This document shows positions 12,511-59,528 of a stretch of 64,000 bases of DNA, piece by piece. Position numbers and translations under genes: made by a program. The DNA comes from Lophium mytilinum. Its lineage: Eukaryota. Each line of letters opens with the position of its first letter. Position 1 is the first letter of the stretch. Location of the stretch: NCBI GenBank assembly GCA_010093605.1, contig MU004181.1:434001-498000 (forward strand), written 5' to 3'. The notes under the pieces are model-generated. The model was not told the DNA's origin, searched no databases, and worked only from the letters and a program-made list of their open reading frames with translations.

Positions 12511-15206
12511 ATGCACCGTTACAGTACTAGCACTTGCTAATTTAACGGCTACAAAATGGAAGCTCTTCAAAACATTCGCATTATGGCTGTCCCCCAGTGC
12601 TTCACGCAGATGATAAAAGTCACAAAAGGGCACGTGACAAATTAAGCCTTCCAGTGCTAGGGGTTATCTTGCGGGGGACGTGGATGTCACTTTTCGACAT
12701 TTCATTTCTCGTCTTTCGTCTAACTTTCCTAGCCCCATACAATGGGCATTTCATCACGGTATGCCATTGAACGTACGTTCCCCGACTGAGTTCCGTCTCG
12801 ACGGGGCTCCCAGGGCGGCAGAATGTCCTCTTATGTGCGAAGTCTTGGGCCGTTGTCTAGCAACGGAGGGTGGGTGGCCGCCGAGCAAATCCCCTTAACG
12901 CGCCCGATTTGTTGACTAGCGTGCCTTTTGGGAGCAAGAGAAGCGAATGCGTGAAAGTGAGGAGGTTCGGGGGAAGGTCCGTCACTTGGGCAAAGACACC
13001 CCAGAAATGTCCAAGAGTCCAGCAATCGGTTTTTAATTACCTTAGGCAGTCTTACTGGTCCAGAAGGGCACCACCGCTGACGTCGCTGGGCTCACTGATA
13101 TCGATGCGTGCCGAGGTCTCTTTAGGTGACATTGTTGGAGCGGAGATGGGAGCAGAGCTGGGAGGGGTGCTTGCAGACGCTTGTGGCCAAGGCAGGACGG
13201 TTTGACTTCTTCTCACTCTTGGGAAAGTAGCGCCCCTCACGTAGCTGGTGAATGCCTTCGTTCCTGGCCTGGCCTGCTTGTAGATGTTAACAAGGCCCAT
13301 TGTCAAACCTGGGCTGGAGGTACCTACCGTAGGGACCCGGTTCCGCATCCCAAAGTTCTGCTGCAGCTTCGACGGCATGGTGGTCTGCTCCTGCGGCAAC
13401 AGGAATCCGGGCTATTCCGGGCACTGAAGTCTTGAAATTGAGAGGCCATTCGTGCTCCGCAGCATCCGCCGCCTGGCTGTTCTGTGACTCAATGTATTGC
13501 GTGTGCTGAAATGATCCTTTTTGCCGGGCTGCTAGCCTGGCCAAATCTCATCCATTCTGCGGTATTGTCACGGACGTCCACGGTTCCTGCCTCGCGCGAG
13601 TCTCCTCCGGATTCCGCGTGGTTGGTGCTGTTCGTGAAGAAGAGCTTGAAGACAGAGCTGGAGGCGTTTTTCGCCTAGTACGACAGCGAGACCTTGATTT
13701 TGCGGGAGTTCGACGGTCGGTAAAATCTAGTTTGGTACAGTTAGTGAGAAGCTATTGCGACGGAAACTCTTAAGAGTTCACCTGTAAACCCTGCTGTTTC
13801 CAGAGTCATCACTTTACTTCTTCTGCTCACTTGGCTGCACAAGCGGAAGGGTCTGCAACTTGACTCCTAAGGATGTCTACGTACTCGCAGGGCTTCTCAA
13901 GGGCGTGCTTCATTCCACTTCTAGCTCCACTTGTTCGGATTCTTCGACTTGTCAAGGCTCCGGTGACATCTTCAGAAGACATGATGTATGAATGAGCTGT
14001 CGAGGTCTGCGCGGGGTTAGCTCGGGCACGATAGCAGCTCCGCATCTCTGCGGGCTCGATTCTACATACGAGGGAGACGGTTCAGGAGATGGATGGGTTG
14101 GGGGAGATGAGACAAGGTAGGACGCCTCTTCTTGGTTCCCCCAGTACTAGGGGTCCTTTCCTTCCTACTGCCCGCCATGGTGGAGGGCCTCGCCGTTGGA
14201 AGCGTGGTGGGGTGAGGTGGACCTCCGGTCCATCACAGACCGGCTCTCATACCGGCGGAGGTGTAGTGGAGTTAGGTAGTGAAGGGGAGGTGAGAGACGA
14301 CGGTCATTGAGCCTGAAAACGGCGTTTGTCGGAGGAGAGAGGATGCGGACGGAGGTGGTTTCGAAGCAGGCGGCGAGCGGCTATCATCGAGGGTGAGCAG
14401 ATGATGGAGACGGCAAGGAGACTGTGCGGATGACGCACTCCGATGATGCTGAGTGCTGTGTCGGGAGAAGATGATGTTCGGGAAAGCTTTGGAGGCGGGG
14501 ATGTTGGCGCGGTGCCGCTAGCAGCTTGAACCATGGACCGCTCGCTCGACCAACCACGGAAAACACAATCACGGGCGAAACGTTAAAACAACTTCACTTT
14601 TGGAACGAATACCAGTCAGGCAGTGAGGTGCTGTTTCATAGCATTGTGTCAAATTACTAAAAGGACAGTTTCACCGGCGCAGATAAACCCCAAGGTCGTG
14701 ATTGTGGATTTCCAGTCGAATACATTGCATAATAATGAAACCATAAAGCAGGCCATGTGCCGATCTCGAGAGTCAAATTCCGAGGGCAAGGCCAGTGATG
14801 ACAGGTTATTTCCGGGGTAACCTGGAGCTCTATACATGTTAGCACCGATTCAGACGAAGATATCCTAAGATCATCTTCACCTGCCAGCCAGATTTTTGGT
14901 ACATTACTCCCTCCGATTCCCTAACAGCTCCTAAATATCGTGTCCTTCGTCTACATTCCGAAGTCGGCGTAGATGAACTGATGCCGGCGTCCCGTTCCAT
15001 TATTCCGTCAACCGGCATAACTGAACTTCTAGTGGCAAGACATCCGTCAGCACCAACGCGGTAAATGATGGCGAATAGAATGTACGAACAAAAAGACTCG
15101 ATAGCGACACGGTCATCGACATCCCGGGCCCCATCAAGGCGCAATCCAGGACTCGACACGATCGTGCCTTGCTCCCATACGGCCAGTCATCTTGTCTAGG
15201 CGCATC

Positions 15207-15428
15207 ATCAGCTCGAAGCGACTCCAGGCTGGGCTGCCGCCTCTGGCCCACGAACACGGAAGTAACGAACTTTACGCCTTCGCTGGCGAGAAAGTCAACG
15301 CGGCGCTGCACTGCCTTTTTGTCGAGCTTCATGTTCGGAATACCGTACATCAGGAGACCGCCGACGCGATCGGAGCGCTCGTAGACGGTGACGGAGTGAC
15401 TAGCTTTATTCAACTGTTCAGCAGCAGC
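15207..15428 (-). pseudogene. GLT1: Fragment of NADH glutamate synthase (small-subunit-like region)
   Basis: [56 protein letters not shown]...SLESLR; flanks are unrelated. Confidence 0.9.
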
Positions 15429-17711
15429 AAAGCTTGACGAACTGAAACTATCTGAAGCTGGCGAAAGGCGAACTGGTGGTCATGCCTAGCGCTCCTTGGG
15501 TGCATTGCTGCCATTTCCGTCGACGCCCTAGGCAATCAACCCCTGGTGTTACGGTATTAGCTCACCTTGAATGACTCTTCGATTAGTGACGTGAAGTCTT
15601 TGGAATAATCTTACCACATTCCGAGATGGCCAAACACAGGCTGGCCAATCCATGGGGCTGAGACCTGTAGGGGCGGCAGTGACGCCACACGGCCATGGCC
15701 AGAGACCACCGTTTCCTTGATCGATAACCCCCGGAACAGCTGAGAGCACAAGCCGCTCCGAGTATCTTGGCTGGAGAAGGGTGTACCCTTCCGAGGCGCG
15801 CGAAGTGAGGATAAGACAACAGGACGAGACTGCGGAGCTGTCCCGAAGCGATAATGGCCAGGTCGGGCCTTGGTTACATGATGCCATCAACTACCTCACG
15901 GGCACGGTCGGGGACGTTGCCGGAGAGCTTGGGACCGCAGGTATGGCTTTCGAGGAAGTCGGCCTTGTGAAAATGTTTCGAGTCGGTGGTCCTGGGCATG
16001 ACTTCGACGACGTCTCGCTGCAATCCTCGTCTGGCATGTAGGCGTCGTCGATAATCATGATGTCACGGTGTTCTTTTTTGACGGATGAGACGGGCGTGTC
16101 CTGGTCCATGTCGTAGTGTTCATTAACGGACTGGAGAGAATTTTCAGCTCTTTTTGTCGGAAAGTAGTCGTGGAAACTCGGACCACACTGTAGTAAGCCG
16201 GACAATCAGGTGAGCGTCGGAGTATCATGCCTCATTATCTTCGTTCACTTCGGCCTCACCTTGCTACTGTTAAGACAGGTGCCGGCCCCAGCTTCTCCAA
16301 CTCAGCCAAGGTAAGACCGATCGACCATCGCTCGGAAACACTTAGGGTGACGGGCACGGGGGTGGTGCTCATCGCGCTGGTGAAGGCCCAGTTGAAATCG
16401 TTGACCTAGTGATTGTCCAGTCAGAGACTGGTTGCAAGATTGTGAGGCCAGTCACCACGAACATAGCGAACACCGGATATCTCGCCAATAGTCGAGACTG
16501 AAGTGACCTAAGCTGCCATGATTTTTGCGAGGTGTTGCTGCTCCTCGCCGCCGAAGACGTCCCAGAGACTCGTACTTCCGGTCATCATGATACCCAGCGC
16601 AACCACTTTCCCACGGTTGCTGTACCGGTTTATTCCCATACATAATGTCAAGATAGATATCTCAACGGACCGTCGGAGGTAGTCGGGGGACGGGAGGATT
16701 GCTCGCAATGCTGGGGTGGTCATGTTCGAAAGTGAGGGGGTGGATCGCCGGAGACGGGATCAAAGGCGATGTCGAATTCCGGAGACCGTCATGCCGTACT
16801 CGTTGTCTACTGGGTCAGCAGAATTCAGTGACAGAAGCAGGGATCCAATGGAGACGCGAACCACCTGTGTAATCCCACCACACATTTGAGATTGCATCAA
16901 TCACACCCCAGATAAACTCCACAAGCATTCCAGGATATCAAATCTTCACCGCCGCCAGATGAGCCTAAGAGTCTTCTCAGAACCGACAGGATACATGGAA
17001 CGAACTTCGAATCGAGCTTTCATCCATTTCCGGTCGCTGAGGCGGTCTCTCTCTTAGGGTTTGCAACACCAACCCACAAGGCGTACTGTGACCAGCAGCT
17101 GGCTGAACTTCGGCCTCCTTCGTGAGTGTTTGTGCGATCGCTCCACCGCTTTGCTTCAGGATTAAGACACGCCGGTATTCGGAGGATATTGTGCCTCTCT
17201 CGTAGGTGGCCGTACTAATGGATGATTCGGGAGGCTGGCAGTTGGTAGCGTCGGGGGCTGCGTGGAATGGTCCCGAGCCCAAACTCGTCGAAGCCAGCGA
17301 CTTTCATATCCTATGACCATGGGATTGCGAGGAGGAAATCCAAGAGAGGTGTAATAGGGCGGAGAGGTTTCGGTGTGAGGATGAGATTATGGAGAGGGAG
17401 ATTTTGGCGAGGATAGCGGGGACTAGCCAAGTACGTTGCCAAGATCCATGGATAGACAGGGAGGCCGGAGACGTGCTCGCGACCATCCAACTCTCTTCCT
17501 CAATCCCAACACCAGGCGAGCTAAATGATACGGAACCCCAGATTGCCCAGAGCACATCCTTTGGCTCCGATCTCGCCCCTACCCGCCAGTACACCTTCAC
17601 TAACGTCCTGTCTGCCAATCAAACACGCCGGCACCCTTCCTCACCTCGTCGGCCAGCTTCTACACGATTCTATCGCGCTAATACGCTAGCGCTAGCTCTT
17701 GCAATCTAGAG

Positions 17712-23123: not shown

Positions 23124-23570
23124 CTAGTTCTCAATGAGTTGCTCCAGGGACAGCTTCTTCCGGATTAGGCCCTCGCGTTGCATCTTGAGAATGCACTCCA
23201 TTGCCAAGTATGGGCAGATTGCATCGGCACCATAGCCAACAAGCACGCACATGTGATGAACCTCGCTAGCTTCAGCTGACCGGGGTTTCCACGACTCTTT
23301 CCAGTCTCGGGTCGATGTCTTGGGGTTGCGATACTTCTTCGAGCGTCGCTGGTCCTTCATGAAGCCATTGGTCTTGTCGAGCACCATCGCCGACTTCTTC
23401 TTCTCGGCCTTCGCATCGCTGACGCTTTCCTCATTGTCCAGAAGGTCGCCTGGAAAAATCGGGAGCGGGTACTCCTTTTTCTTCGCTTTCTGTTCTCTCG
23501 CCTTCCCACCAAGAAGAAACCCCTTGTAATTCGTCGTCATGACTTCCGCGAATCGAGGAAGGGCTTCATT
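23124..23570 (-). pseudogene. GLT1: Two non-colinear glutamate synthase fragments fused in frame
   Basis: EALPRF...[36 protein letters not shown] (large/small subunit linker) is followed by [39 protein letters not shown] (central domain, normally far upstream). Confidence 0.9.
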
Positions 23571-24042
23571 CCACAATCCAGCGCTGGACAAGGGCGTAGC
23601 ACTCCTTAGCCGCGCTGTGGACCGCGTCGCCGAACGGAACTATAGTCTCATCGGTGTCATTTGCCTTGGTCCTCAGCACGTCGGGCTGTTTGTCGATGAG
23701 GTACCACAGGCCTATGAAGCTGCTCACAGCGACGTGCGTCAAGTTGAACGGGGATGGATTCTGGTGATTTTCAAGATCTTCCACGCGTTGGTGGGTGCCC
23801 CTCGCGAGGTGCCAGCAGTAGTAGATTCGACCCGCTTTAGATCGCTTCTGGTTCTCGAGCTCAGGATGATGCTCGAGCACGCTGACGAGAGTTTCCGTGG
23901 CTGTCAGCATCTCTTTGACCTTGGCCTTATCTGGCACGTTGACCTCGAGGTCGAAAAACTCGATGATACGGTCAGGATTGAGCAGGATGCGGGCAGCGAG
24001 CCCCGGGTCGAGGTCCTCCCGGAAATGAGCAGAGATAGTCAA
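23566..24042 (-). CDS. Hypothetical protein or unidentified gene fragment
   Basis: 158-codon frame with globular-protein composition and GC3 bias; start uncertain; its stop overlaps the GLT1 fragment. Confidence 0.5.
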
Positions 24043-24254
24043 CGCCCAGTTTACCGGACAGCTCCATCATTCGGCACAAGCCGACGCCTATGCCGGCTAA
24101 TGAGTATTTCCTTCTTCGCCGCAGGTGGATGCGCGGTCTGGCATGCCCTCCATACGCAGAGCCACAAGCGACGAAGAAGGAAACACTCACTAGCCGGCAT
24201 TACCCAGCAGGTCATTCCAATTCGGACACATATTCGAGCTTAGAGCGAGGTTGC

Positions 24255-24689: not shown

Positions 24690-24841
24690 CTTGTGCAGTG
24701 AATGCACAGCAGCGGGGAAAGAGACATACATCTGCTTGAAGCCGGAGCTCGTCCAGGTCGGAGAGGTCGATGACCGCGAAGTCCGTCGCCGGCACACGTT
24801 TGCTTGACCTCCGGGACCTGATCCAGGTCGCAGAGGCACAT
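24690..24841 (-). pseudogene. DIB1: Two further short Dib1/Dim1 fragments
   Basis: CLCDLDQVPEVKQ (24841-24800) and DFAVIDLSDLDE..GFKQM plus the start of the same intron (24786-24690). Confidence 0.75.
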
Positions 24842-24942
24842 GCTTCGCCGGAGTGTTTGGTAGCGGCACCCAAGATGCATCCCAGAATGTTGTCGTTGTC
24901 GGCGATGGCATCTTCATATCGCTTCAGAATGACCGTACCACA
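24842..24942 (-). pseudogene. Fragment of a non-reducing (melanin-type) PKS ketosynthase domain
   Basis: CGTVILKRYEDAIADNDNILGCILGAATKHSGEA matches the NR-PKS KS motif G.VILKR.EDA.AD.DNILG.ILGAATNHSAEA. Confidence 0.85.
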
Positions 24943-33000: not shown

Positions 33001-36000
33001 CACAAACCATGTTCTTGGAGTAAAGTCAGGATGAACCTAGTCTCCATCGCCTTCTGAAATCCTCAGTTGTGTTCTCGGTATAGGTCTGTGGATGTTCTTG
33101 CTAATCAAGTGGAACATGCTCCCAGGCCTTGTTTTCTATCGATCGATCTGATCCGGGCTCTGAGTGATGTTCTTTCTTGACTAGTCAGCAAGACTGGAAT
33201 TGGTACGTACAACGATGGGCCGGAAAAGATACCAGCTCCGCTGGGACTTTCCATGGCGCGAGATGCGCAGGGTCTGGGCCATTATGCTTTCCACTTCCGG
33301 TCGAAGCTGCTATTCTTCCAGACGCCTAGTTCTTGTCTCTTTAGACTGAACGGTGTTTCACCGGATCCGTCACCTGTAGTTATCTCATCTTGATGGCGAC
33401 GATACTCGCATATCATGATGACGCCGAATGGGAGATCGAAGCGGAGTTCCGTAAACTCGCTGCTCGCTAGCAGATGGAAACAAGATTTGTACCCGAAGAT
33501 GATTTTTAGGTTGATTGTCTCGTCTGAAACCTCCATGGAGGCTACCATGGTCTTGCTGCGCCCTTGTGAGGTTGGTTTGTATTTTCCAAGTATGGAGCAG
33601 GGGCTCTTGCCGTGGTTGGGGGTTTCATTCTTTTGACCGCTGCCTAGGAGACAAAGTTCGATCTCGTTCAAGGCATCCTTCCCACCACAGCTCGGGCTGG
33701 CGAAGGTCACGTCTGCTCGAAGGCTTATCTTGGTCGGGACATCGGGTGGGCGTGTAGAGGGGATGGGGTGAGAGGCCTGGCTTTCGAACAAGTCAGTCAA
33801 TGGGTTCACCAAAAACTGATGGCAATACCTGAAATCTTTCGCGAACAATACTCGATCACGACGGCTCCCAGGTCCCAGGAGACATACCTTCAAACGGCAG
33901 TATCGTCGTCACTCGAACATGAAGAAGAGGTAAGGGACCAGCTTCAGGCATGTTCATGCCAGCTCTCTGACAGTATTTTAGGCCTTTTTTGTTCTTTTAG
34001 ATATGTGCCAGTCCAACAGGTTGCTGCACTCCTGCAGACTATGTCTTGACGTGCGGATAGATAGCCCACGCTGTGGGGAACGATGGACGAGTCCTGGTGT
34101 CAAAGAATCTGCCGGTCGATGTGGAGGGGTGAGAGGGTTTGAGTAGGGACAACAACTGTGCGAACGAGGTGTATGAGGTCTAGGAGAAGTCTTGCTAGTC
34201 AGCCACGGTTCTGTTGCACGCTGGAACGAAACCTGGATTTCCGGACAGCCCTGGGTTGCGGCTTGCCCTGTGCCGGGGAGGACCGGCAAGATGATGAGCT
34301 AGAGAGCATTCCATACCTAGTTGGCCATCCGCGCTTGGGGTGTGTCAAAATGTAGCGCGATACAATATAAGAGGGATGAGGATTGTCGTGGCTATCTTCT
34401 GGAGTCGGTGGTGTGTCGTTCCCTTCAGAGAATCGATGTGGTTATCTCCGCGGAGGCCAGGTCGAAGGGCGGTAGGAGTATGGAGACGGCGAGTGACTGC
34501 AGCAGGTGAGAGTCAGTGATGATCGTGTAAGCTTTGCGCGACGGGTTGGGGCTTCGAGGGGGGAATGTGGTTTGCGTCGCCGCCATCGTAGCTTGCCTCC
34601 CCAGAAGCTTGCCACATACTCCTGAGCGCAGCGATGATTGTCGCGATATCCGAAAGACTGCACGGTATCTTGAGCGTATCATTGTCGGGGAGTGGGATCG
34701 TGAGTGAAGGAGAGGAGCGGACGCGGGGGAGTGCGGTCCGCGAGAGGCGGTTGGGGACAGGCGGCCGGGAGGCTTGGGAACGTTCGTTTGATTAGGTATA
34801 GGCACCACAGGAAGATAATGCGATACGCATGAGCTCGCGACGAGGTTTTGAGGATGCGAAAGGAGGTTCTTTGCGCGGGACAGCTTGGAGATTGAAACGG
34901 AGGGTTCATGAGGCGGATGGGCGGCGGGGGACGGCCACGACGAGAGGAATTGGGAAGGCGCAGAATGGCGGCGCTGCGAAAGAAAGATGCGCATCACTGT
35001 CTGCCTAGATATTGTGCGGAAAGAGATGGGCGATGCGGGACGACGTGGATGTGAACGAGGCAGAGGTTTGCGAAGGGGAGAAACGCGAAAGGGCGATTAT
35101 GACGGGCGGCATAAGGAGAGCGTAGAACGGCAGCATCACGACGCCGAAAACGGACAAAGAAGAGATGTAGACATATGCACTATGATGGCCGCTCTTCCGT
35201 CTTGATATGCCCGCCTCACGTTTCGGAGTCTTATGCGTGCGCGTCGTCCTAGGGGCTGGAGACAGAGGGCCTGAAGTGGTATCAACGCGCGCACCGCCGA
35301 TATCACAATCTTCCAGAGGCCTAGATTGGGCCCACAGGGTACAATACATGTCTTCTTAGTTCTATACGGAGTTCTGTCGCCATGGTGTTGAACAGCGCGA
35401 CGCGAAGTTACTCCATGGCGAGGCGGCGGGCTGTCCCGACTGGATTGCCAATGCGAGCAGCAACAACACGTCACTATATGTTGCGCTAGAGATACCACGG
35501 AAGGCGAAAAGAAGACATCGCCATAAGGAAAAATTCTAACCATCGTGACTTTTACACCGGCTCAGTTCGGTACGACCCTTGCCGCCATTGAACTTCACAG
35601 CGGGTCTCTGGGACGCAACCGTGGCCGCCTATCACCACAACGACGTGACTTCCGCCCTCTCATGCTCGCTCTAGATAGCTCCGATGAGAGAGAGAGAGAG
35701 CGACTCTTCTGATCTCGGTAAAAGCGGCGTCCCAGCTGCCATACCAAGCAAAATTTGCATTCGCCACACCACGGGCAGAGTCGCGCTTTCAGTGTCGCGA
35801 TAGAAAAGGTGCATCATCACAACCCGATAGCTGGTCACGACGAACCCCAAGATCACAAACGTGATTGCTTCTTCTTCGAGTACCCAGACAAGCTGAATAG
35901 TTCAATGAAAAAGGTGGTGAACAAAGATGTTCGCGTCGGCCCGAGGCAGTGCAATACGAGCGACACTGTGTCCCTTGACATAGGCAAGCCCAGCGGCCAA

Positions 36001-37116
36001 GGGACGGTTTCCAAAGACTGGGACAAAAGCTGGACTTCCGAAGAAGCCTGCCAAGCCCGTAGGCAAGGCAAACGGAGGCCAAAGGACCAACCGCGAAGAA
36101 GCGAAGGCAACGGCACGGCAGAAGGAACTAAGACACGTCAGCGATGAGGAAAGAAGGAAGGAGGGTGGGGGGCCGGCCTTATATAGCTGGCCGCAAGCGA
36201 ATTTTCGGCCCGGATCAACACGTCGGGTGGCCGCTTGGCAACAGCGGCAGGCCGTTCTGTCTCTCTGGTAGTAGAGCGCTGCCGTAGTAGCCGGCTGCGT
36301 TAGATTGCCGAAGGGACGGTGTGGCAGTTTTGGGCAGCCGTAGGGCGGCCTGCTTGACCGCGAGAGAATTGGATCTCCGGGCATATACGCACAATCACAG
36401 ATTTGGACACAAGGAGAGCTCACTTGGAGCAGTCTGATAACTCCATAAGCTACTTCGAGCACTAATAGAGGGAAGCGAATCGGAGGCAGCATTCGTCGAA
36501 TGTCCATACATCGGAACGCAGTGAGAAAAGCAGCTGTTAAAATAAGAAAGCAGGAAACCGTGGTTCGCAAGTCAGTCCTACCACGGCTGAGTTCTCGAGG
36601 GGGCGCAGTAGCTTGATCCATGCGCCTTGGTGTTTACATCTGATTGGGGTAGGGGCAAGCGGGCACGCGCCCCCCCATCTGTCTCTTCCTCGCCTTCTTC
36701 CTTTCTCTCTTATTCACCAATCTCTTTCATCCTCACTCCTCTACATCTTCCACTTTAACGGCGCTGGAACTGTTCTATCTCACTCACAGTAGCACCCTGC
36801 CTTGCCTCTTCGGTCTTGTGACGGTATTACTTCTTTCTACCTTCCTTTGCTACTTGTCCGTCGTTCAGCGACCGGATAACCTGCAGCAGCCCGGAGCTGT
36901 AGGTAAGTTTCTGCCTCTCTACAAGAGACACACGACTGATAGTAAGGCCGATAGTTGCACTACCTCCTCTCTCGCTACTCTTTCGCCCAGCTTTCGTCTT
37001 CTACTCTGCCCAGCAACACGCAACCCAGGCTGTTTCTCGCAGCCCAGACCCGACCGGGCATCAGCAGCCATCATGGCATTGGCATTGACCTTCATCACCT
37101 TCGCACTCCCTGCCTC

Positions 37117-37171
37117 ACTCGACTCACCACTCGACTCACCACTCGACTCACCACTCAACTCACCACTCAAC
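37117..37171. repeat. 12-bp minisatellite
   Basis: ACTC(G/A)ACTCACC repeated about 4.5 times. Confidence 0.9.
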
Positions 37172-37409
37172 TTACACCGTCATTGGAAGAAGACAAGCAG
37201 TCCAAGCGTTGTCCTGCCTTGCCGTTCTGGGTGACTAGTTATAAGTCCAATTCAAATTCAATGAACAAGACGGACAAGATAGAGACTGACTGTATTCACT
37301 CTAGCTATAGCCTCAACGTTTTCACTTCTACCTCCTTACCTTAAGTTCCTCCGTACCCTTGCGGCTCACTGTGCGAGCGACAATATCCCTTTTATTCCGT
37401 ATCGAAAGC

Positions 37410-37690
37410 CAACCGGTGAACGAAAGGTCGAACTATAATCGGCAAGCCCACCCCGTCGACCATAGCACCTAGAGACACATCCATTGCTCCGGGCCCGAGT
37501 CCAACAATGTCCGATGCTGTCAGGACTACGTACCTTTTGTCAAGATTGATAAGCTAGCCGGAGAACGAAAGGTTGAGCTTCAATCGAAAGCTCCCCCCTC
37601 ATCGACCACAGCACCTAGATACCATTGTTTTTGGAAGACCTCTCTTCCACCGACTCGAAGAGCAACCACGGATATGCTATCATATCTGCC
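37410..37690 (+). repeat. ~145-bp tandem unit (2 copies), parts of which recur at 38985, 39186 and 39915
   Basis: GAACGAAAGGT at 37418 and 37563; TCGACCA(T/C)AGCACCTAGA at 37456, 37602, 38987 and 39191; CGACTCGAAGAGCAACCACGGA at 37651 and 39924. Confidence 0.85.
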
Positions 37691-38212
37691 GCTCATGGGT
37701 AGGAACGGTAGGTGGTTCCCCAGGTCGAAGTCTCGAAACCTGTGCTAATGTCAGCTGCAGAAGCCTGGGTTCGCCAGCGCAAATGGGCCCACTCGTTCTT
37801 GATGCAGGCTGCTGCCACCCAATACAAGGGAATCATGGACTTCGAATACAAGCACCTGCTTTTCATCCTCCTTAGCGACCCCGACAATTTCAGCTTCCAC
37901 ATCGAGAACGCGAATTCGAAGGTTATGTGCACGACGCTGATGTCGCACGAATCATCGACCCGAAGACACGAGAATTCCTCAGGGAGTACCGCCCATACAG
38001 CCTGGTCCACTCGGCCTCTTCAGGAAAATGCCACACCGCCACCAGCACCCTCGAGCTGGTCGAACACGCTCGCCTACGATGATCCCAGTCCCAGCTCTGA
38101 GATGCGGTTTAGTGCATGGCGCTTACGTCGCCAGATGTCGCCGAATGGCCCAGTTTCTTGAGACCGCTCTGGCGCTTGCCTCTCCTCCTCAATCCGTGGA
38201 AGCGAAGCGAAG
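37690..38212 (+). pseudogene. Cytochrome P450 fragment (middle part), with intron and a ~130-bp insertion
   Basis: PLMGRN-[intron]-EAWVRQRKWAHSFLM...LLSDPDNFSFHIEN..SKVMCT-[insert]-LAYDDP...SAW.L.RQMSPNGP...PLWRLP..LNPWKRSE; resembles fungal CYP C- to F-helix region. Confidence 0.7.
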
Positions 38213-38756
38213 TTCTCTGTCGGGTGGGAGGAGATGGCTGCGACCGCGTGCGACGGGGCAAAATCTAGGTGAGATGCGTGGGGTCTGGTCAGATACGGTC
38301 TGTAGCTTTTGTCTTCTGTATTTTCAAATCAAAACCCTTTCCCCCTTCTAGCCCTCGGGCCCCTGCAGTGTCTCCGCCTGCCGCTTCAAACATCGTCAAT
38401 CCGAATTTGCTGCCGCCATTCTCAGAGCTCTGCTTCTTCATCACTCCTCCAACGTCCCATTGCCATTCCGCCGCCCGTCGTCGTTGTCGTCGTCATTCGC
38501 CTGCCGTCCGCCGCCAGCCGTCCGCGTCACAGATTCCCTCGCCGTTATAGGACACCGTCGCGGAACCAAGCCGAACTTTCGCGCCCAGTATACTGCTCTT
38601 CACCGTCAGACCCCTTCCGTCTCACCTCCAGGTCCCAGGAAATACCTCACTTTCAAAGAACCGACTCCTGCCGGGCGGGAGCCCGCATTCCACATCTTCA
38701 CCACGTCCTCTCTTCATCTGTAACTCACGACTCGTCTCAAAACCCCGCCCAGCATA

Positions 38757-38985
38757 ATGTCCTTCAGCATCGTCGTAGTAGCCCTGGTTCTCTATACCTT
38801 AGCACTCGTGACTACCGTCGAAGCATACCGTCGTTAGAACAAGACAAGTAATCCATGGGGATTCCCGGGCCCGGGTATGGTGCTACACCGGCCGAATTCA
38901 CAACCTGCCACCCGAGTGTTTTTGGCTCAAGCTCAAAAAACGGTCTGACAAGCATGGAGGCATCTACAAGACGCAAGACTCGCAC
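38757..38985 (+). pseudogene. Cytochrome P450 N-terminal fragment
   Basis: Hydrophobic anchor MSFSIVVVALVLYTLALV, a TAG, then FPGP, a frameshift, and GRIHNLPPECFWLKLKKRSDKHGGIYKT. Confidence 0.75.
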
Positions 38986-39020
38986 ATCGACCATAGCACC
39001 TAGAAACAAATTCCTCCGAT

Positions 39021-39521
39021 TGACCAGATCGGTCTCCTCGGTACTGGCAAGCCGGCGGAACTCCGAGCTGGCTTCTTCCTCACTTCACGGCTTCCATCAA
39101 TGCCCTAAAGGAGTATGAGCCAGAACCGATGCTCAACTCAAGGGCACCCAAAGTCTTCGCCATCTGGTGCACTGATGGTGTATTCCCCCATCGACCATAG
39201 CACCTAGATACACATCCACCGTCTGGTGCACCGACATCTGGTGCACCGACGGTGTATGCCCGAACGAAGACGATCCTCGCCCCCCACCAGCTGAGGAGGA
39301 AGACCCTGCTCCCATGAAGTGGCTTCTAAACAACCGCACCGACTTCTCGGACAATGGCTGGGCACAGCTACTACCAAAGGAGAACTTCGAGTTTGCCGTC
39401 TTGGACGGCAACCACTTCACGATGATGAAGGATGCTCACGTAAGTCACACTCTCCAGTCTGCAAGAACGGACTGGAACTGACAACTATTAGGGCGTTACC
39501 CTTGGCAAATTGATCGAGCAG
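39021..39521 (+). pseudogene. Fragment of a melanin-type PKS thioesterase C-terminus, with intron
   Basis: DQIGLLGTGKP..PSWLLPHFTASINALKEY...FAIWCTDGV/CPNEDDPRPPP...PAPMKWLLNNRTDFSDNGWAQLLPKENF...GNHFTMMKDAH-[GTAAGT..TAG]-GVTLGKLIEQ. Confidence 0.9.
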
Positions 39522-39800
39522 CCCTTCGCGCCTGTATCAAGGAGACCATGCGATGAAGGTCGCCTGTGCCAGCCGGTAAGTAACTTTGTACCAGCACGGA
39601 GTGCACACTAACCTTAGATAGGTGTTGCGCACGAGCTAGAGGCTGACGACTACTACCATGGCGGCTTCATCCCGAAGGGAACGATGGCTCCCTTGACTGG
39701 TGAGTCCTACCAACGGACCCTCCATATCCTTCCTAACGTAGAGCTAGGGCTATGATGCGCAACGGGGCCAAGTACCCAAATGCTGAGAACTACCACCCAG
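39522..39800 (+). pseudogene. Cytochrome P450 fragment (K-helix to just before PERF), with two introns
   Basis: LRACIKETMR*RSPVPAG-VAHELEADDYYHGGFIPKGT-..AMMRNGAKYPNAENYHP; carries the ExxR and IPKGT motifs. Confidence 0.85.
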
Positions 39801-41441
39801 GGCGGTTTTTGAGCTGGAGGTTTGGATGAAACTTCGTCGTCATCTCGGATGAGTCCATCGCAGAAGAGCTCTTCGTCAAGCGCTCGGGGCGGACTCGGAC
39901 AGACCTGTCGTGCCATCTCTCATCGACTCGAAGAGCAACCACGGAAGGCTGTCGCATGGCCGGATCGCATAGAAATTTTGAATGGTGTTTTCGAATCTCG
40001 TTCTTGATACCAATGCTTGATTCCCTTCCGCATCGTGATTCTGCCGTTGTGGCGGCCAGAGCCATAGCATACATCCGAGGCCGTGTTGCGTCATCGCCCT
40101 TGTGTCACTGCGAACTGGCCAGAAATGCAATTCCTAATCGTTACGATGCAGCAAAGAAGCTTAATGTTACGTTCGTGTGCATCAGCTTTTTACAGTCTGC
40201 TACGTCTACTTGGAGTGCCCCAGTACGGCTCCAATGTGACACGTGAGGAGTCGTTTCTGCAGGCTCACAATTCAAACACAGCGGATCTCTCGTCGATTGG
40301 AGGAGTGATAGTTACAATCAAAGGGTCTATACCGGCAGCTCCAGCGCTTCGAACGCGTACTCAAACTGTCGGAGGCGGATTGGGGGACCGACACGTGACG
40401 CATCCGACGGCAAAGGCCGCAGCCCTCGGCGTCCTCACATACCCAACTTCACTACCTCTTCCAACATCACACCCTCCTCGAGAATCACACCCTCCTCATG
40501 GCTATCCATACTCTTCTGTCCCGCCGCCTCGCTAGCGAACACGAACAGCCTCAGGCCGTCGCCTCGGACAGCGCCGCCTGCAACGCCAACATGACAGCCT
40601 TTCTCCCGGCCTAGTCTGACCCCGGCCATGCTCAAGCACCACTCATCACAGCGCCAGAGGAGGATCCGCTTGACATCTTGGGGTCTCTAGCCATTGTCTC
40701 GCCTTTCCACGCGCTCCTGCCGTTGCCGCTCGACGTGCTGCCCGGCCAGCGAAACATTGCTCTGATCTGGGAGCACCTCTCCTCCGGCTAGCACCCTGAC
40801 TCTATCACCCGGCAAGGTAGGCTGAGCCTCTTCACTTCCAGCACATGTAGCCTTCACCTTGACTGACGATGTCTTTCACTCAGGTCAGACCCGCTCAGCA
40901 TCTCGATTCGAGCGACAGAAAATGGAGCAGGGCCTTATACTACAGGAACCGCGTGGACCTCACGGACCCATCATCCACATGCATCCTGCCCTTCGTACCC
41001 CGCCGCGTTCCACTTTCTACCAAGAGACTCTATATCCACAACCTGCGATGTGAGGATATATGGAAGAATCGCGAATGTGCTGGAAGCTTGCCCGATGGAA
41101 GGCACCATGGCCGAAAGGCAAGCGCTATTGAGCTGGAGGGCGAAAAAGAAGTAAGGAGATTCTCATGAATAAGTGAGGAAGACAGCCTATAACTGATGAA
41201 CAAATCTCGACATTGTAGGCCGACACATCCTATACGCCTCCGCTTTGCTCCCAACGGCCTCTTTCTCACCCTTAGTTCACGCCGGCGAGAAGACCTTCCT
41301 CAGCTCCGAAGCACGCGCGACGTCCGATTGTCGGCATCTCCAGAGCTAGCTTTCGCTGGAGGCCGCGAACTAGAGTTTCGGTTCCGTGAGGGTTTTCACG
41401 CTCGTCAGCTACGTCTTCCTCGTCCTGATGTTCCCGCCATC

Positions 41442-42114
41442 ATGGGCCAGCTCCCGTCACCGCAGGGAAATCCGCATGCTTCGCAAGCGCCCCAGGGCAT
41501 AACCTTAATACCTACCCAAGTGCCGACCTTCCACCTCTCTTCCTCTGCCGGGACTGCGAATCGTATTTCCGGATTGGTGAGCTTTGCGCCCATGCGAAGC
41601 AGCTGATAGCACAGCTGGAGGCCGCCGCCAAAACGAAATCCGCCATCCAGAAAACCCTCCTTGGCCTACCAATTGCCCAGAACGGCCGGATTTCAGCTCA
41701 TTTTCCTGATGTCTCTGCCCAGGACGCCAAACTGGAGGGCTGTCTGAAGAGAATTGGAGAGTTGGAGAAGAAGGACGAGGCCGCCGAGAAGGGTCATGAG
41801 GGTCACCGAACTGCTAGGGATTTCATCTCGTTTGAAGTGAACAGTTTCTGGATGCTGAGGAGGTGACTCTTTCCCGCACCATTCCGATCGAGCCTGTGGC
41901 GGTTGATTTTGGCGAGGGTAGGAAGGAGGCTGAGGAGCCCCTGAAGGAGGTGAAGAAGAAGGAAAAATCGACTCCTGAGCAGGCTGATTTGCAGCCTTCC
42001 CGCGTCAGCATTCCGTCGCACCTTCGATATCAGGGCGAGAAGAAGACTGTTTTGGACCCTCAGGGCAGTCGCGCGAATGTCTTGGGGGATAGCAGAAGCG
42101 CATCGTGGTGTTGA
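41442..42114 (+). pseudogene. Possible charged/coiled-coil hypothetical gene with a frameshift
   Basis: Short GTGAGC..CTGAT..CAG intron, then LEAAAKTKSAIQK...ELEKKDEAAEK; a Glu/Lys-rich frame continues in another phase. Confidence 0.3.
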
Positions 42115-45010: not shown

Positions 45011-45545
45011 GAGTGCGGTATGCGAAGCTCTTCCACACTCCACGGGTATGCACACACCGAGATGGATTGTGTCGACTAGGTATGGCGCACAAACCCATAT
45101 ACGTGGGACTCAAGGGGTATGCTCAGGCAGGTACTACAGGTTGAATCTCCTGGCCCACGGATATTGAGTAAGAGCGATGGCAAACCAAGCGGACAAATGG
45201 ATACCTACTCTATAATCACATCCGTTGTTATGAACGTCTCAAGGTAGACGGCGTTCGTGACACCTTGGCTTTTCATGATACTGCTAGCCTGTCTTCATCA
45301 AGCGTAGTGCAGTGGAATTTACTCAATTGAACCCGAACCGATATTATTTGATGGTAATCTGAGTAACAAATGCTAGAATGTGAGGCAATACATGCTAAGA
45401 CACTGTGGCGTTGCAACATTGACGTAGATATGGCCTGGAATGATCACGTGGACTGTCACGTGAAGCCTTGATTACCGAACTCCGCAGGTCTTGCAGGTCG
45501 GCCACGGTACTGAGCCCCCCACTAACCTCGCCAAAACTGTCCACC

Positions 45546-46805
45546 ATGGATACCTCACGGTACTACTACGGGCTTCCGTATAACAGCAAAGCCCCCCCTC
45601 CCGTCGATATCACATCAATTGCCACTGCGCAGTCTCTACGAACTTGCGCGAAATGTAGAACCGCGAACCCCAAGAGCTTCTTCGTGAGCGCGTCCTGCGG
45701 ACATGACACCGTCTGTCTCATGTGCTTTCGCGTTTGGCTCAGCGAGTCTCTAAAGATAGACTGTTTCGTGTGCAAGCACGACTTCTCAGCTGGGGAGGTT
45801 ATAGGGGCTCTTTGCACGCGGGAGATGCCCGAATCTGGGGTACGAGATGCCATTGCGCAATGGAAAGAAACTAATCTGACGGTCATGGGACTATAGGATC
45901 AATACACTGCATACACGAGTTACGCGACCCTCCCAGCAAGCATCATAGCCGATTTATCGGCCACGTTTACGCTGGACTCTCCCTTAGAGGTGATCAAATT
46001 CGACGACTTCCAGGATGGATACGCCGTGGTGGGTGGAACATGGCCGTACGGCCGTGGAATGGAACCGTTCACTCTAGATATCGGTGAAGTCTTCAAGATG
46101 TGCAAAGACAAGGGCACGGCGATGCCTCCTACTGTTCGCATGCAGCAAGAAAGCATGCTATGGCAGATATTCTTTGGCAACAATGCGCTAGCCTTCACCT
46201 CCCTGGAAACAGCGCGACGACTAAGCCACGGACCAACTCCTCATTGGTACAAGCTAGTAAAAGAAGTCCATATTGCGACCATCGTCGCAAAGGATCACGA
46301 CGAGGCTTGCAAACTGATCATTAACAAGCTTTCAAGGGATCCACCTCCTGATCTCCGACGTGTCCTTGTATCCGCTGAGTGCATGGACGAATGGTTACGG
46401 ATGAACCATAGATGCAATACCCCTTTCCTGCAAAGTCTGCCTGATCTGATAGAAAGGCTCGTACTTCGACTCGCGAAGTTGATTGTCGCAATCGATAAAA
46501 AGGGCTCCTGGACGCGAATTGAGTGGGACCCCACCGGTCCGCGAGACATCTGGATCTGTGATTGCGATCCCAATCAACCCAGTCCCGGCACGCATCGACG
46601 GGAGACATGCTCATAGTTTGAGCGAGAAGGTGCCGAGGTGCAGTTCGACAACCGGTACCAAGAAGTACTTCGTATTCTAAGAGGTCGAACGCTCAGAAAC
46701 GACAAGGAGACGGTAGAGTTGATTGTTGCGGGAAAGGCAAAACATCTAAACATGGGACGCCCAAAACGCGAGCGCATCGGAGAGGTGGAGCAACTGCATG
46801 AATGA
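45546..46805 (+). CDS. RING-HC plus F-box-like domain protein R1 (exons 45546-45839, 45897-); in-frame TAG at 46614, homologous frame continues to 46805
   Basis: CAKC..SCGHDTVCLMC..W..CFVC; YATLPASIIADL..WQIFFGNNALAF..ECMDEWL..LPDLIERLVLRLAKLI. Two CACGTG boxes lie upstream (~45445-45462). Confidence 0.8.
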
Positions 46806-48024: not shown

Positions 48025-49651
48025 ATGATAGGTCGTATCGAAGAAAGCCCGCCCATCGGCGACCAGTTCGGTCTACTTCCAACGAGCTGGAACCCTCTAC
48101 CTCTTCCTAATGAGACAACTCCAGCCGGACTCTCCACAGAAGACTTCCTTTTCCCTATCGATGCACTAGACTGGCCAATTTTCCTATCGATGCACTGGAC
48201 TTGCCACTTTTCCCTATCAATGCATTGGACTGGCCAACAACGCCGGCTACCTTCATTAACAAGCGTTTCTTAACCGAAGCCGGGAGGTCATTGCATTCAG
48301 TGCGTCCTAGTTTCATCAGCCGTGGATTGGAACAGGGAGGCCTTGTGGTGGAGGACGACCCAAAGGATACCGCGGCAAGCACTTCAACCCCACCGCTTCC
48401 TCTAGGGAATTGCAGCATTTGCATGCAGGATATGAAAGGAAAGGATATCACGACGACATTTTGTGGTCATACGTTCTGCCATGGCTGCCTCAAGGAGTGG
48501 CTCCAGCACTCGCCTCACATGAATTGTTCCGCCTGTAGGCGGCAATTTACGATGGCAGATGTTGTGGGAGTGACTGTATCCGGCAATTTGCTGACAACGA
48601 GGGTAAGCTAGCCCGAAAACATATACCAATTCATATGGTAGTGTTGACTTATCGTGAACAGGACGAATATCAGTGGTACCCGTCGTTCTCTGAGCTGCCA
48701 GATAATGTCAAAGCGGACATGCTGGCTACATTAAAGCTGCCCTCATCGCTCCAGGTCTCTCGTGTGCGAGACAATAGCCACATAATGTGGGGTTACTGTC
48801 TTGCGCCGGCCAGGAATCAAATTTCATATAGCCACTCTGTCTACGTCGATCTTGACACACTATTCGAAAACTGCGTAAATCATAAGGCGAGCCGGACTAG
48901 AGACTTTGAGGAGGCATTCTTGTGGGAAGCCTTCTTGAGAGCCAACGCCGTGGCTATCCATAACACAGCATCTTTTGGATCGTTATACCATCTCAGTGCC
49001 GACGCATGGGGCTGGATAGAGGTCATTGAGGTAGACAGCCTCTACTCATCGGACTCACAAGATGCCTTTCGCTTGCTGTGCAACTATATCGTCAAGACAC
49101 GGCCAAGCTCTCGGGAAACGAAGAAAGCCAAGTCTCTTCGAGAGATACGACTCACAGCGGGTTTCCTGGACCAAGAACTCCAGGACATATTCTTCAACAA
49201 GCGCGGAGACTTTCTTTCTGCTGTTCGAGAGCTTGCGAAGACCATCTCAGTGTCAGCCGCGAAACTCATCTTCGCTATTCGCGATGGTCAGACAAACGTC
49301 AGACTCATGCTCGATCCGCTCGCGTTCAGCAAGAAGTGGCTCTGCTATAGTGGCAACCCTTGTCAGGGGCATTCAAACATCACGTATTAGCATCTACCGC
49401 GAATTGATCGCGCGGACTGCACGCAAGAAGAGCAGGAAGCCGCAGCAGCGGTGTTCCATAGCGAAATTGAGAGAATGGCAGCAATCCTAAAGGGTCGCAA
49501 AGGCATATACCGGGCCTCTAAATCAGAGACCAATCGGATTATTGAAGAAGGGCAACCTTTGTAGAATGGCAAGAAGCGCAAGCGCAAGCTGGAGGATGAC
49601 GAGGACCCCAGAAGCTGTGCCGGGAACCGGCAAAAGGCACGTCGACGATAG
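48025..49651 (+). pseudogene. RING-HC plus F-box-like family member R2; frameshift and two in-frame TAGs
   Basis: CSIC..CGHTFCHGC..W..CSAC; intron 48603-48661; FSELPDNVKADM..WEAFLRANAV..AAKLIFAI; TAG at 49388 and 49562; 1-bp deletion near 48183. Confidence 0.75.
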
Positions 49652-56193: not shown

Positions 56194-57838
56194 CTAGTCT
56201 AGTCCGATCTTCTTGCGCTTTGTCGCCGAGTCATCTCCTCCATGCGATGCATCGATATTGAATGCCTCCTCCGCAGCGCGTTTGCGGTCGTCGTGGTTTG
56301 TAGAGCTATCTTCTGTGGCTGCCAGTGGTGTCTCAATACTGGCTCGCGTAGTCGCTTGTGCTTCGAGAGTCCTCAGAAGTTCGAGGAAGTGATCGAGCTC
56401 CTCGAGAAGGAATTCATTGTCCTTGTCCGTCAACGTCTCGGCTAGAAACTTATCATCGTTTTCATCCTCCTCGTCACTAGTATCATCCTCGGAATTCTCA
56501 TCCTCAGAACTCTCTTCCTCAGAACTCTCTTCCTCGGCGTCATCCCCAGACATTTCTTCGCTGGTTCTATGCTCAGAGCCTTCAAAGCTAACCTCTTCCT
56601 CGGAATTCTTTTCTCGGTCGAGTGCGTGTCGTTTCTCTTGTAAGAGCCGTGCTAGCTCTTGGGCTTCTCGCACTACGCTCTGGAGGATCTCGTCCGTAGG
56701 TTTGATCTTGAGCTCCTGACCCGCAAATATCGATCCCACTAGGACGAGTTTCGCCTTCAAACGACGAGGTATGCTGGTAGGATCCTCGGGTTGATCTATA
56801 TGGCCAGGCTTGCGCAAGCGTGGCGGGATAAAATCCTTGGGAACTTGCACGAGGTTCTCCCAAAGAGCTTTGTCTTTAGCGGCGAGCAACGGAAGTGCAG
56901 CTACGGCGAGAGTCGTGGTGAAAGCGTCAATGGCTGGATCCTTGCTCACATTGTAGTCAGGGTCTTCACACAGGTAGTCGTCGACAGCCATAGAGTAGAT
57001 ACGGATCGACCGGAAAGACTTGGCCTTCGCGAGGATTACAGCGAGCTTTGCGACGTCGAGGCGGCCTTCGTCGCCGTAGTCAAGACGTTGCATCTCTACC
57101 TTCTCCAGCTGGTCGAAGTTGTCTCTATTCAGATTGCGGAGAAAGTGTCCTACCGTCCCGTCATCTAGACGGAACGTATTGACTCTGTAGTGAGCCTCTA
57201 GGAACAGGCATTGGAGCTGGGGGTCCGCTGGCTGGCCATCCTTGGTTCGGTATTGCTCCAGAGGCTCCACCAGGCTCACTCTGTAGTGTTCGCCATCGAA
57301 GTTGTCAGGGTACCACTCGTGATCGGATGACTCGTAGGCGAAGCCCATCCACTGACTATGTTGAATTGTGCCATGCTCTATGCGGCGTACCTCCATGGGA
57401 CCTTTGAGTCTCACAGAATCTTCCATGTCGGCTTTCACATCGTTCGGCAAGTCCTCGTACCGTGCATACGCAACACGAGGATCCTGCTGAACGGTCAGTC
57501 GTGCCGCATGAGTATTTTGCCGCTAATCCTACCGATGTCTTGAAGTCCTGGCGGGAAAGTCGCACACGTAGGACGTTGCTGAGCGTGAAATGATCTCGGC
57601 AGTGGGGGCAAATGGTCTTCCTATTTGTCCATCGCGCTAGACAGCGAGAACCGATCTTTCTCTTGCAGCAGGTCGTCTGGATCTGTTCAGTGTGCGCATC
57701 GTCTTCATAGTCCTCCAGGCAGATAAGGCATCCCTCATCCTCATCCTCCAAAGACGATGTAGTAGCCGCACCATCATTAGCATCATCATTTGAAGGGTTT
57801 ATAGGCGCATCAACGGCTTGATCTTCCTTTTCCGGCAT
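56194..57838 (-). CDS. Variant RING plus F-box-like domain protein R6 with acidic tract and KRKK, intact (exons 57838-57533, 57486-56194)
   Basis: CLIC..CCKRKIGSRC..W..CPHC; phase-0 intron; YEDLPNDVKADM..LEAHYRVNTF..AVDDYL. Confidence 0.85.
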
Positions 57839-59528
57839 CTTCTCGGCGGGGTCGGGGCGGGAGGCGATGTTCGAGTTCTGGCGTCGATGGTGTAAGATTT
57901 AGTGTTTCAATTCTGTCCGGGTCCGGAGTTTTTGACAGCGTCCGTGCTCATCGTGATCCCAGACGGGTGCAAAGCGTACGTAAGCAATGGGAAAGTCATA
58001 CATTGATAATACATACAGCTGTATATAGCCCTAGTCTACCGACGCGGCTGCATTTTCATTAGCCTGTTAAGCCAGCGATACAATGCGCCTGAAAGTAGCT
58101 CAAAAGGCAACCAACTCTAAGGTCACATGCCTATATGTTTACAGCCGTTGATGAGCAACATGATTTTACCATTCAGTCTACTACGTGGCTCGGATCTTCG
58201 CGCTGTCGGCAAATCGAGCTCCACGACTTTCAAACTTCTAAGTCTGCTTTACCAGCACGCAGAACCCTCGTCTTTGCACCGCAATGGCAACAAATCTACA
58301 CGCTGCAGTCTCAAGCGATCTATAAGCTCAAGGCGGGGAGGCGAGTTTTGGTCATCCGCCTTTAGACAACAAGACTTTCTAACTCGGCACAGGGCCAGAC
58401 GGATACGTCTCCTAGGGACAAATTCGATCTTACAAACCTCTCCGCGACGGATCCTTCACTCGCGCCCCACGCTGAGATCGCGCTGGAACCAATGCTACCT
58501 AGTCTGAACAGCTCGGATGTCCAACGTGGCGAAAAGAAGCCCAAATACTTGGAGAAGGTTGGTAGGCTAGGTAGTCACATTATGAACTCTCTTCAATGCG
58601 AATTCCTACGTAATACCTTCGGCTTCAGAATCTCCTCAACTGTGGTATTGGTTTGATGACCGTTATGTAGATCTTGGGCTCCCCTGATCTTTCGTTCTCA
58701 TATGGGCGCATGATGTACTTTCTTGAGGGTGTGAATAAGAATAAGTAAGCTGAGATTTCTTTGATACATTTGAGACATCCCAAACCATTTCAATTCCTCT
58801 CATCCAATCTTAAGCGTTCATGGCCATGATTCGGCACAGCGGTGTGACTCTTTTGCATAACTACTTGGAAGTCTCCCAGCAGACTCGTCGCCGTCCCTGG
58901 CTGAATACTCATTTAATAACAGTTCAAATCTTACCAAATAGGTTGTTGATTAGGAAAGACCCTTTTCGGTTTGAGACAACTTAGGCAGCATTTGTCAGGT
59001 AGAAAAAAGGCGCGTATCCGCGCATCTCCAAGTCATACTTCAAATGTGACATTCCATCTCACATCCAAAGATCCCTACAGGGCACCTCTGACAGTGCTAG
59101 TGGGGCGAAAAGGTTCGTGGTTCAACAAATTGATATCCAGCACCTTGAGCTTCCATTCTCACTTTGGAACCGGATAGAATAATTCAATATCTATTGAGGT
59201 AGGCCAAACAACACCGAAAATCTGGAAAACAAGTTGATCAGGAGTGCTCCAAAACAGTTTCCACCTTCATGAATTTGAATACGTCATAGTTCAGTACGGA
59301 CTTGAGTAGATTTGTACCCCGATGGGCACTCTTCGGATCCTGCGCGCAGCAATAGTGAAGATGCAAAAAGGTGAAGTTACAGGCCCGTGCGTCTCTTTTC
59401 TCTACTATGTCAGCTCGAAAGCGTCATGTCTATCTTCTTTCCTTGTCCGAAAGTCCTCATCATCCTCCTACGCATTGCTCAAAAAAGCACCAAAAGCACA
59501 CAAAACCTACACACAAAACCTACACACA

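Follow-up and report, generated by a model that had tools for sequence, protein, structure and literature searches.

A co-oriented mosaic of unprocessed P450 and polyketide synthase gene fragments in Lophium mytilinum, likely joined by microhomology-guided template switching

Main finding

Within 2.5 kb of the 64-kb window (the whole stretch of Lophium mytilinum DNA analysed here, 64,000 nt), we identified 15 junctions and three donors. The identity of the donors, the native order of the pieces, the precise inserts, the kept introns and the disabling mutations together mark this locus as a mosaic of gene fragments, for which we infer a repair mechanism and an order of events. The locus is likely to be a non-functional mosaic of unprocessed copies from at least three of the genome's own genes, joined by several rounds of microhomology template-switch repair.

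Sequence data and assembly

A single sample with two runs (X1 and X2, probably the assembly's own data) supplied contigs that were aligned to positions 37000–40300 at 80% likeness, and contigs of a close relative (X3), in which spliced joints are visible, were compared at the same 80% likeness. The contigs of this genome and of the close relative gave the native order of the cytochrome P450 gene and the form of the polyketide synthase (PKS) gene without insert. A misassembly of the region is extremely improbable: the run contigs do break at 37917–38036, 39095–39105 and 39859–39915, but contigs with zero differences, probably the assembly's own data, span 37000–37755, 38036–39095, 39105–39589 and 39561–39859, bridging most of the junctions.

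Structure of the array

All pieces of the array are co-oriented on the + strand, namely, five of P450, four of PKS, the third donor D3 and four copies of a recurring word, L. The array starts with a first copy of the D3 tail (37406–37441, with the GERKVEL motif), which showed 78% identity over 73 nt to 37551–37622. This is followed by L1, consisting of an 18-nt core and shared flanks (37442–37490), by a D3 unit (37491–37587) that reads NVRCCQDYVPFVKIDKLAGERKVELQ in frame +3 and matches protein P0052, and by L2 (37588–37640), in which the D3 frame is carried on (SKAPPSSTTAPRYHCFW). P450 residues 109–186 come next (37641–37929; 65 of 68 aa identical), including an intron and, inside the piece, the left copy of a 22-mer; in X3 this intron is spliced (joint 37706 to 37760, GT..AG). 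PKS residues 22–68 (37931–38064; 81% over 47 aa) lie within the P450, which continues with residues 187–241 (38065–38223; 42 of 55 identical). The C-rich spacer at 38224–38696 has no Pfam or donor match and could be diverged P450 upstream DNA; its stretch 38332–38366 recurs elsewhere in the genome. Beyond it lies a P450 piece with one stop and two frameshifts, which begins 57 nt ahead of the start codon and ends at residue 75 (38697–38976); L3 (38977–39021) separates it as filler from PKS thioesterase (TE) residues 1821–1875 (39022–39183; nhmmer E 8e-36), which carry a 1-nt deletion. L4, together with a 14-nt re-copy of the TE (39184–39234), is not in the native PKS, and is followed by the TE from residue 1869 to the last exon (39235–39522), with the intron at 39439–39490 kept. 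The two final pieces are P450 residues 347–412, from the K-helix to PERF (39523–39823; 53/59), with the intron kept and W357 changed to a stop, and P450 residues 78–122 (39824–39962; 37/40), with the right 22-mer inside.

Pfam recognized none of these short fragments, even at an E value of 10. The fragments named in an earlier, sequence-only reading are real and all lie on the + strand, but its list was incomplete, lacking PKS residues 22–68, P450 residues 187–241 and 78–122, and D3 at 37406–37640. A 137-aa gene model, P0048 (37745–38158, +), is chimeric, with two stretches of P450 on either side of PKS read out of frame, and such a model on a mosaic is a caution for annotators.

P450 and PKS donors

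The P450 donor is represented by P0049, a named 534-aa cytochrome P450 of L. mytilinum (Pfam p450, E 7e-47) that is 95% identical to the P450 piece, and the donor of the PKS pieces, a melanin-type enzyme, by P0002, a 1949-aa non-reducing PKS that is 96% identical to the TE piece. By tblastn, the two proteins matched all P450 and all PKS fragments of the array, respectively, on the + strand. X1 and X2 contain native contigs of both donor genes, which are intact at other places in the genome. Amino-acid identity of the fragments to the native genes ranged from 76% to 96%. In the loci of 62 relatives, neither the P450 nor D3 was found at 10 kb or less from the PKS.

In the native P450, the contiguous order is 38697–38976, 39824–39944, 37673–37929, 38065–38211 and 39523 onward, while in the window the pieces run as residues 109–186, 187–241, 1–75, 347–412 and 78–122; residues 242–346 and 413–534 are absent from the mosaic. 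The native joint 38976 to 39824 has six other letters between the pieces, with no shared nucleotide and 6 nt replaced; the joint 39944 to 37673 was detected in X3 only; the joint 37929 to 38065 shares 4 nt; and the last leads from 38211 to 39523. The PKS N-terminal piece of about 135 nt is thus inserted exactly within the P450. Similarly, the 74 nt inserted at IWCTDGV (39161–39234) have no counterpart in the intact PKS, in which 39160 joins 39235 with 15 nt in common, as seen in X1, X2 and X3. The word TCTGGTGCACYGA is present three times at 39160–39249 (repeat family D5; TRF, 15 nt × 1.9), in agreement with the earlier description of a TE interrupted at IWCTDGV with this word repeated. Around both inserts the host sequence is otherwise unbroken, and the 4 and 15 nt of shared sequence are as for templated insertion at microhomologies; shared bases could be read at these two inserts and at the joint 38976 to 39824. 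These exact inserts make the template switching proposed earlier plausible, but the dedicated capture or archiving proposed as its alternative is not supported.

Several other PKS-related sequences were observed. The segments 37888–37998 and 38332–38366 have approximately fivefold depth in the genome's own contigs, in which a joint 37996 to 38332 was also seen; the PKS N-terminal piece is therefore present in further mosaics at other places in the genome. Outside the array, the window holds PKS residues 384–419 at 24835–24942 (−; 89% identity), residues 1528–1575 at 13067–13213 (−; 53% identity) and two weak matches at 24007–24045 (−) and 7469–7510 (−).

The third donor

D3 is a small conserved hypothetical-protein module. 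The region 37473–37649 is open in frame +3, and a phmmer search of 1.84 billion proteins gave a match to P0052 (E 7.5e-4), with 20 of 34 residues identical by BLASTP and the common motif NVRC..DY..F.K.DKL.GERK.EL; the alignment with P0052 ends at the first codons of L. One contig of the same genome matches 37491–37587 only, with loose ends at both 37491 and 37587. A search for D3 among longer proteins yielded nothing. The tail of P0052 may resemble an Argonaute N-terminus; Pfam, PDB and Atlas gave no support for D3 as such an N-terminus. Both organisms have a native contig in which the D3 motif (37536–37583) is tandemly repeated with a period of 75 nt (25 aa), suggesting that D3 is a multi-copy, repeat-bearing module.

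The recurring words

The 18-nt word TCGACCAYAGCACCTAGA, the core of L, occurs at 37456, 37602, 38987 and 39191 (four matches with at most two mismatches, versus none in 100 shuffles), and the 22-mer occurs at 37651 and 39924 (two matches, versus none in shuffles). Chance is not expected to produce either word, and the positions reported earlier were right for both; the interpretation of these words as linkers that border gene fragments did not hold. The 22-mer codes for DSKSNHG of the P450 and forms the end of the piece with residues 78–122 and the start of that with residues 109–186; it recurs because these two pieces overlap by about 50 nt (37641–37691 and 39916–39962). The 22-mer is native P450 donor sequence and not a linker, which is the kind of outcome that the earlier reading had named as its refutation; the same probably applies to the 18-mer. 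L starts right behind the D3 motif with the same reading frame kept, as is the case for two of the four copies, and most likely represents native sequence of the D3 family. L3 and L4 are snippets of 30–45 nt with 92–94% identity to L1 and L2.

A profile of the four copies detected no fifth L in the 64-kb window (best other match, E 2.9), and there were no further copies in the approximately 61 kb that contain at least four other gene pieces; every gene fragment of the window outside the array is without L. Contigs of the same genome carry L elsewhere in other contexts, with a depth of about 3.6-fold at 37444–37554. When 30-nt loose ends were read by eye, one other genomic copy of L was preceded by a D3-like tail, and by-eye alignment of another showed a resemblance to the 18 nt downstream of L2; these ties of other copies to D3-like sequence are suggestive only. 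Of the supposed repeat of about 145 bp, two copies exist, but they are only 78% alike over 73 nt and TRF makes no call. The spacings of the 18-mer are uneven (146, 1385 and 204 nt) and do not form a regular repeat-spacer pattern, consistent with the earlier statement that the array is not a CRISPR.

Other identities were considered for L. MAFFT aligned it with the native PKS thioesterase, but an nhmmer profile of 19 relatives ended at 39020, and the Smith-Waterman scores of the four copies were reached by 14, 38, 33 and 137 of 300 shuffles; L is not detectably PKS sequence, and this identity was rejected. A likeness of L to the 5' end of 5S rRNA was also rejected, since Rfam 15 gave no match in the window at gathering score (best in the region, E 3.4), and a snoRNA-like match at 39166–39232 (E 5.3) was at the level of chance.

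Helitrons have a 3' end of CTRR after a hairpin, at which the element ends, and insert between A and T, while in Pack-TIR and Pack-MULE elements the captured pieces are flanked by terminal inverted repeats. We regard it as very unlikely that a gene-capturing transposon of the Helitron or Pack-TIR type collected the pieces with L as its terminus. L does contain CTAG, with all four copies in one orientation and others elsewhere in the genome, but the similarity between L1 and L4 extends 8–12 nt beyond CTAG, the next base is A rather than T in 4/4 copies, no hairpin is conserved, and L is missing outside the array in the 64-kb window. The best inverted pair in 36000–41500 is 24 nt at 71%, and no terminal inverted repeats were detected there.

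Origin of the mosaic

The introns inside the fragments are kept in 3/3 cases, indicating copying from DNA, and three Trp codons have become stops, with several frameshifts in addition. With the intact donors in X1 and X2, these features are those of an unprocessed-pseudogene mosaic. Processed pseudogenes have lost their introns and carry a poly(A) tail; the array has all three introns and no poly(A). A reverse transcriptase jumping between unspliced transcripts, followed by insertion of the chimeric cDNA, would fit pieces that are all sense on one strand and all from transcribed donor parts, but the kept introns and missing poly(A) speak against it, as does a contig of the relative that extends 675 nt past the 5' end of the P450 piece, showing that this end is no transcript start. 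We consider this route quite unlikely.

At the DNA level, the difference from the native PKS was 3/139 (~2%) for the N-terminal piece and 19/230 (8%) for the TE, and that from the native P450 was 4/192 (~2%) for residues 130–186 and 34/280 (~12%) plus two gaps for the N-terminus. This uneven divergence (~2% to 12%) suggests several events, or gene conversion at a later time. Copy and native gene differ by symmetric transitions, and there is thus no RIP signature.

Under the favoured reading, error-prone repair of breaks or replication would have taken place in several rounds, with template switching at short microhomologies. The growing strand would copy a stretch of one gene, jump to another and at times resume at the exact point left earlier in the first donor. 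Two D3-derived snippets of 30–45 nt, from 1.4–1.6 kb upstream, may have been copied again to fill two later junctions, and it is this filler that would give the look of a recurring linker.

Two observations stand against this reading. The uniform orientation of all pieces is not predicted by random break repair, and the P450 overlap of about 50 nt, one period of 2273 nt apart, is also compatible with tandem duplication or with re-insertion of a circle. Both are unexplained, so that variants by duplication, by a circle or from an RNA template stay in play. In the first two, one P450-based unit would have been tandemly duplicated, or a circle excised, copied and re-inserted, with deletions leaving one period and the terminal overlap; read as a circle, the P450 order becomes 1, insert, 2, 3. 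The overlapping pieces differ in age, however (~2% versus ~9% from the native gene), and the inserts and L would be left unexplained, and we judge such an origin unlikely.

An array serving as a dedicated archive, or as a small-RNA source regulating the melanin PKS and P450 genes, could draw on the sense fragments of two secondary-metabolism genes that are present. Against it, no linker system was found, the other PKS pieces of the window lie on the opposite strand and without L, and the decay of the fragments appears neutral; the probability of such a role is very low. Equally small is the chance of a process, pictured by analogy with piRNA clusters, in which pieces of transcribed genes would be continually stitched into co-oriented mosaics with strand preserved and local filler re-used, the arrays then feeding small-RNA control of the donors.

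Surroundings of the array

A scan of 123 open reading frames gave almost no other Pfam matches, and the whole window thus looks gene-poor. Short pieces of other genes were observed, namely from the central domain of a glutamate synthase (23127–23639, −; 43 aa, E 2e-12) and from an amine oxidase (15003–15479, −; 25 aa), together with RING-finger open frames at 48114–48608 (+), 57359–57898 (−) and 45444–45893 (+), two of them above the Pfam cut-offs and one weak. Upstream of the array, the 12-nt tandem repeat CACTCGACTCAC (× 4.8; 37116–37172) lies within a 193-aa open frame at 36653–37231.

Significance and comparison with known systems

The locus is a fresh example of an already known kind, the unprocessed pseudogene mosaic. 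Its value is that of a clean, naturally occurring example of complex patch repair guided by microhomology in the germ line of a fungus, with the intact donors there for comparison. If the co-orientation and the presence of similar mosaics hold genome-wide, the species could serve to study the origin of such patchworks.

Like the products of Helitron and Pack-MULE/Pack-TIR capture (PMC4224331, PMC8277862), the array is a mosaic of fragments from host genes that still have their introns; unlike them, it is without element termini, inverted repeats and target-site duplications. For the genome of Mycosphaerella graminicola, within the Dothideomycetes, pseudogene fragments that are unprocessed have been described, along with gene 'footprints' that chromosomes have in common (PMC3111534). 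Going by the portion of that account used here, the array resembles them in its degenerate partial copies with an intact copy elsewhere, its stops and its gene-poor DNA, and differs in having 15 junctions within 2.5 kb, a single orientation and no RIP signature. In the parts of the literature on templated insertions, MMBIR and FoSTeS that we draw on (PMC8421209, PMC11724301, PMC13065848), inverted segments are common, whereas the array has none, and its mechanism is read from the product only. The array nevertheless shares with these events, as those parts present them, joints with short microhomology, inserts whose templates lie nearby or far away, resumption of the original template and local re-copying.
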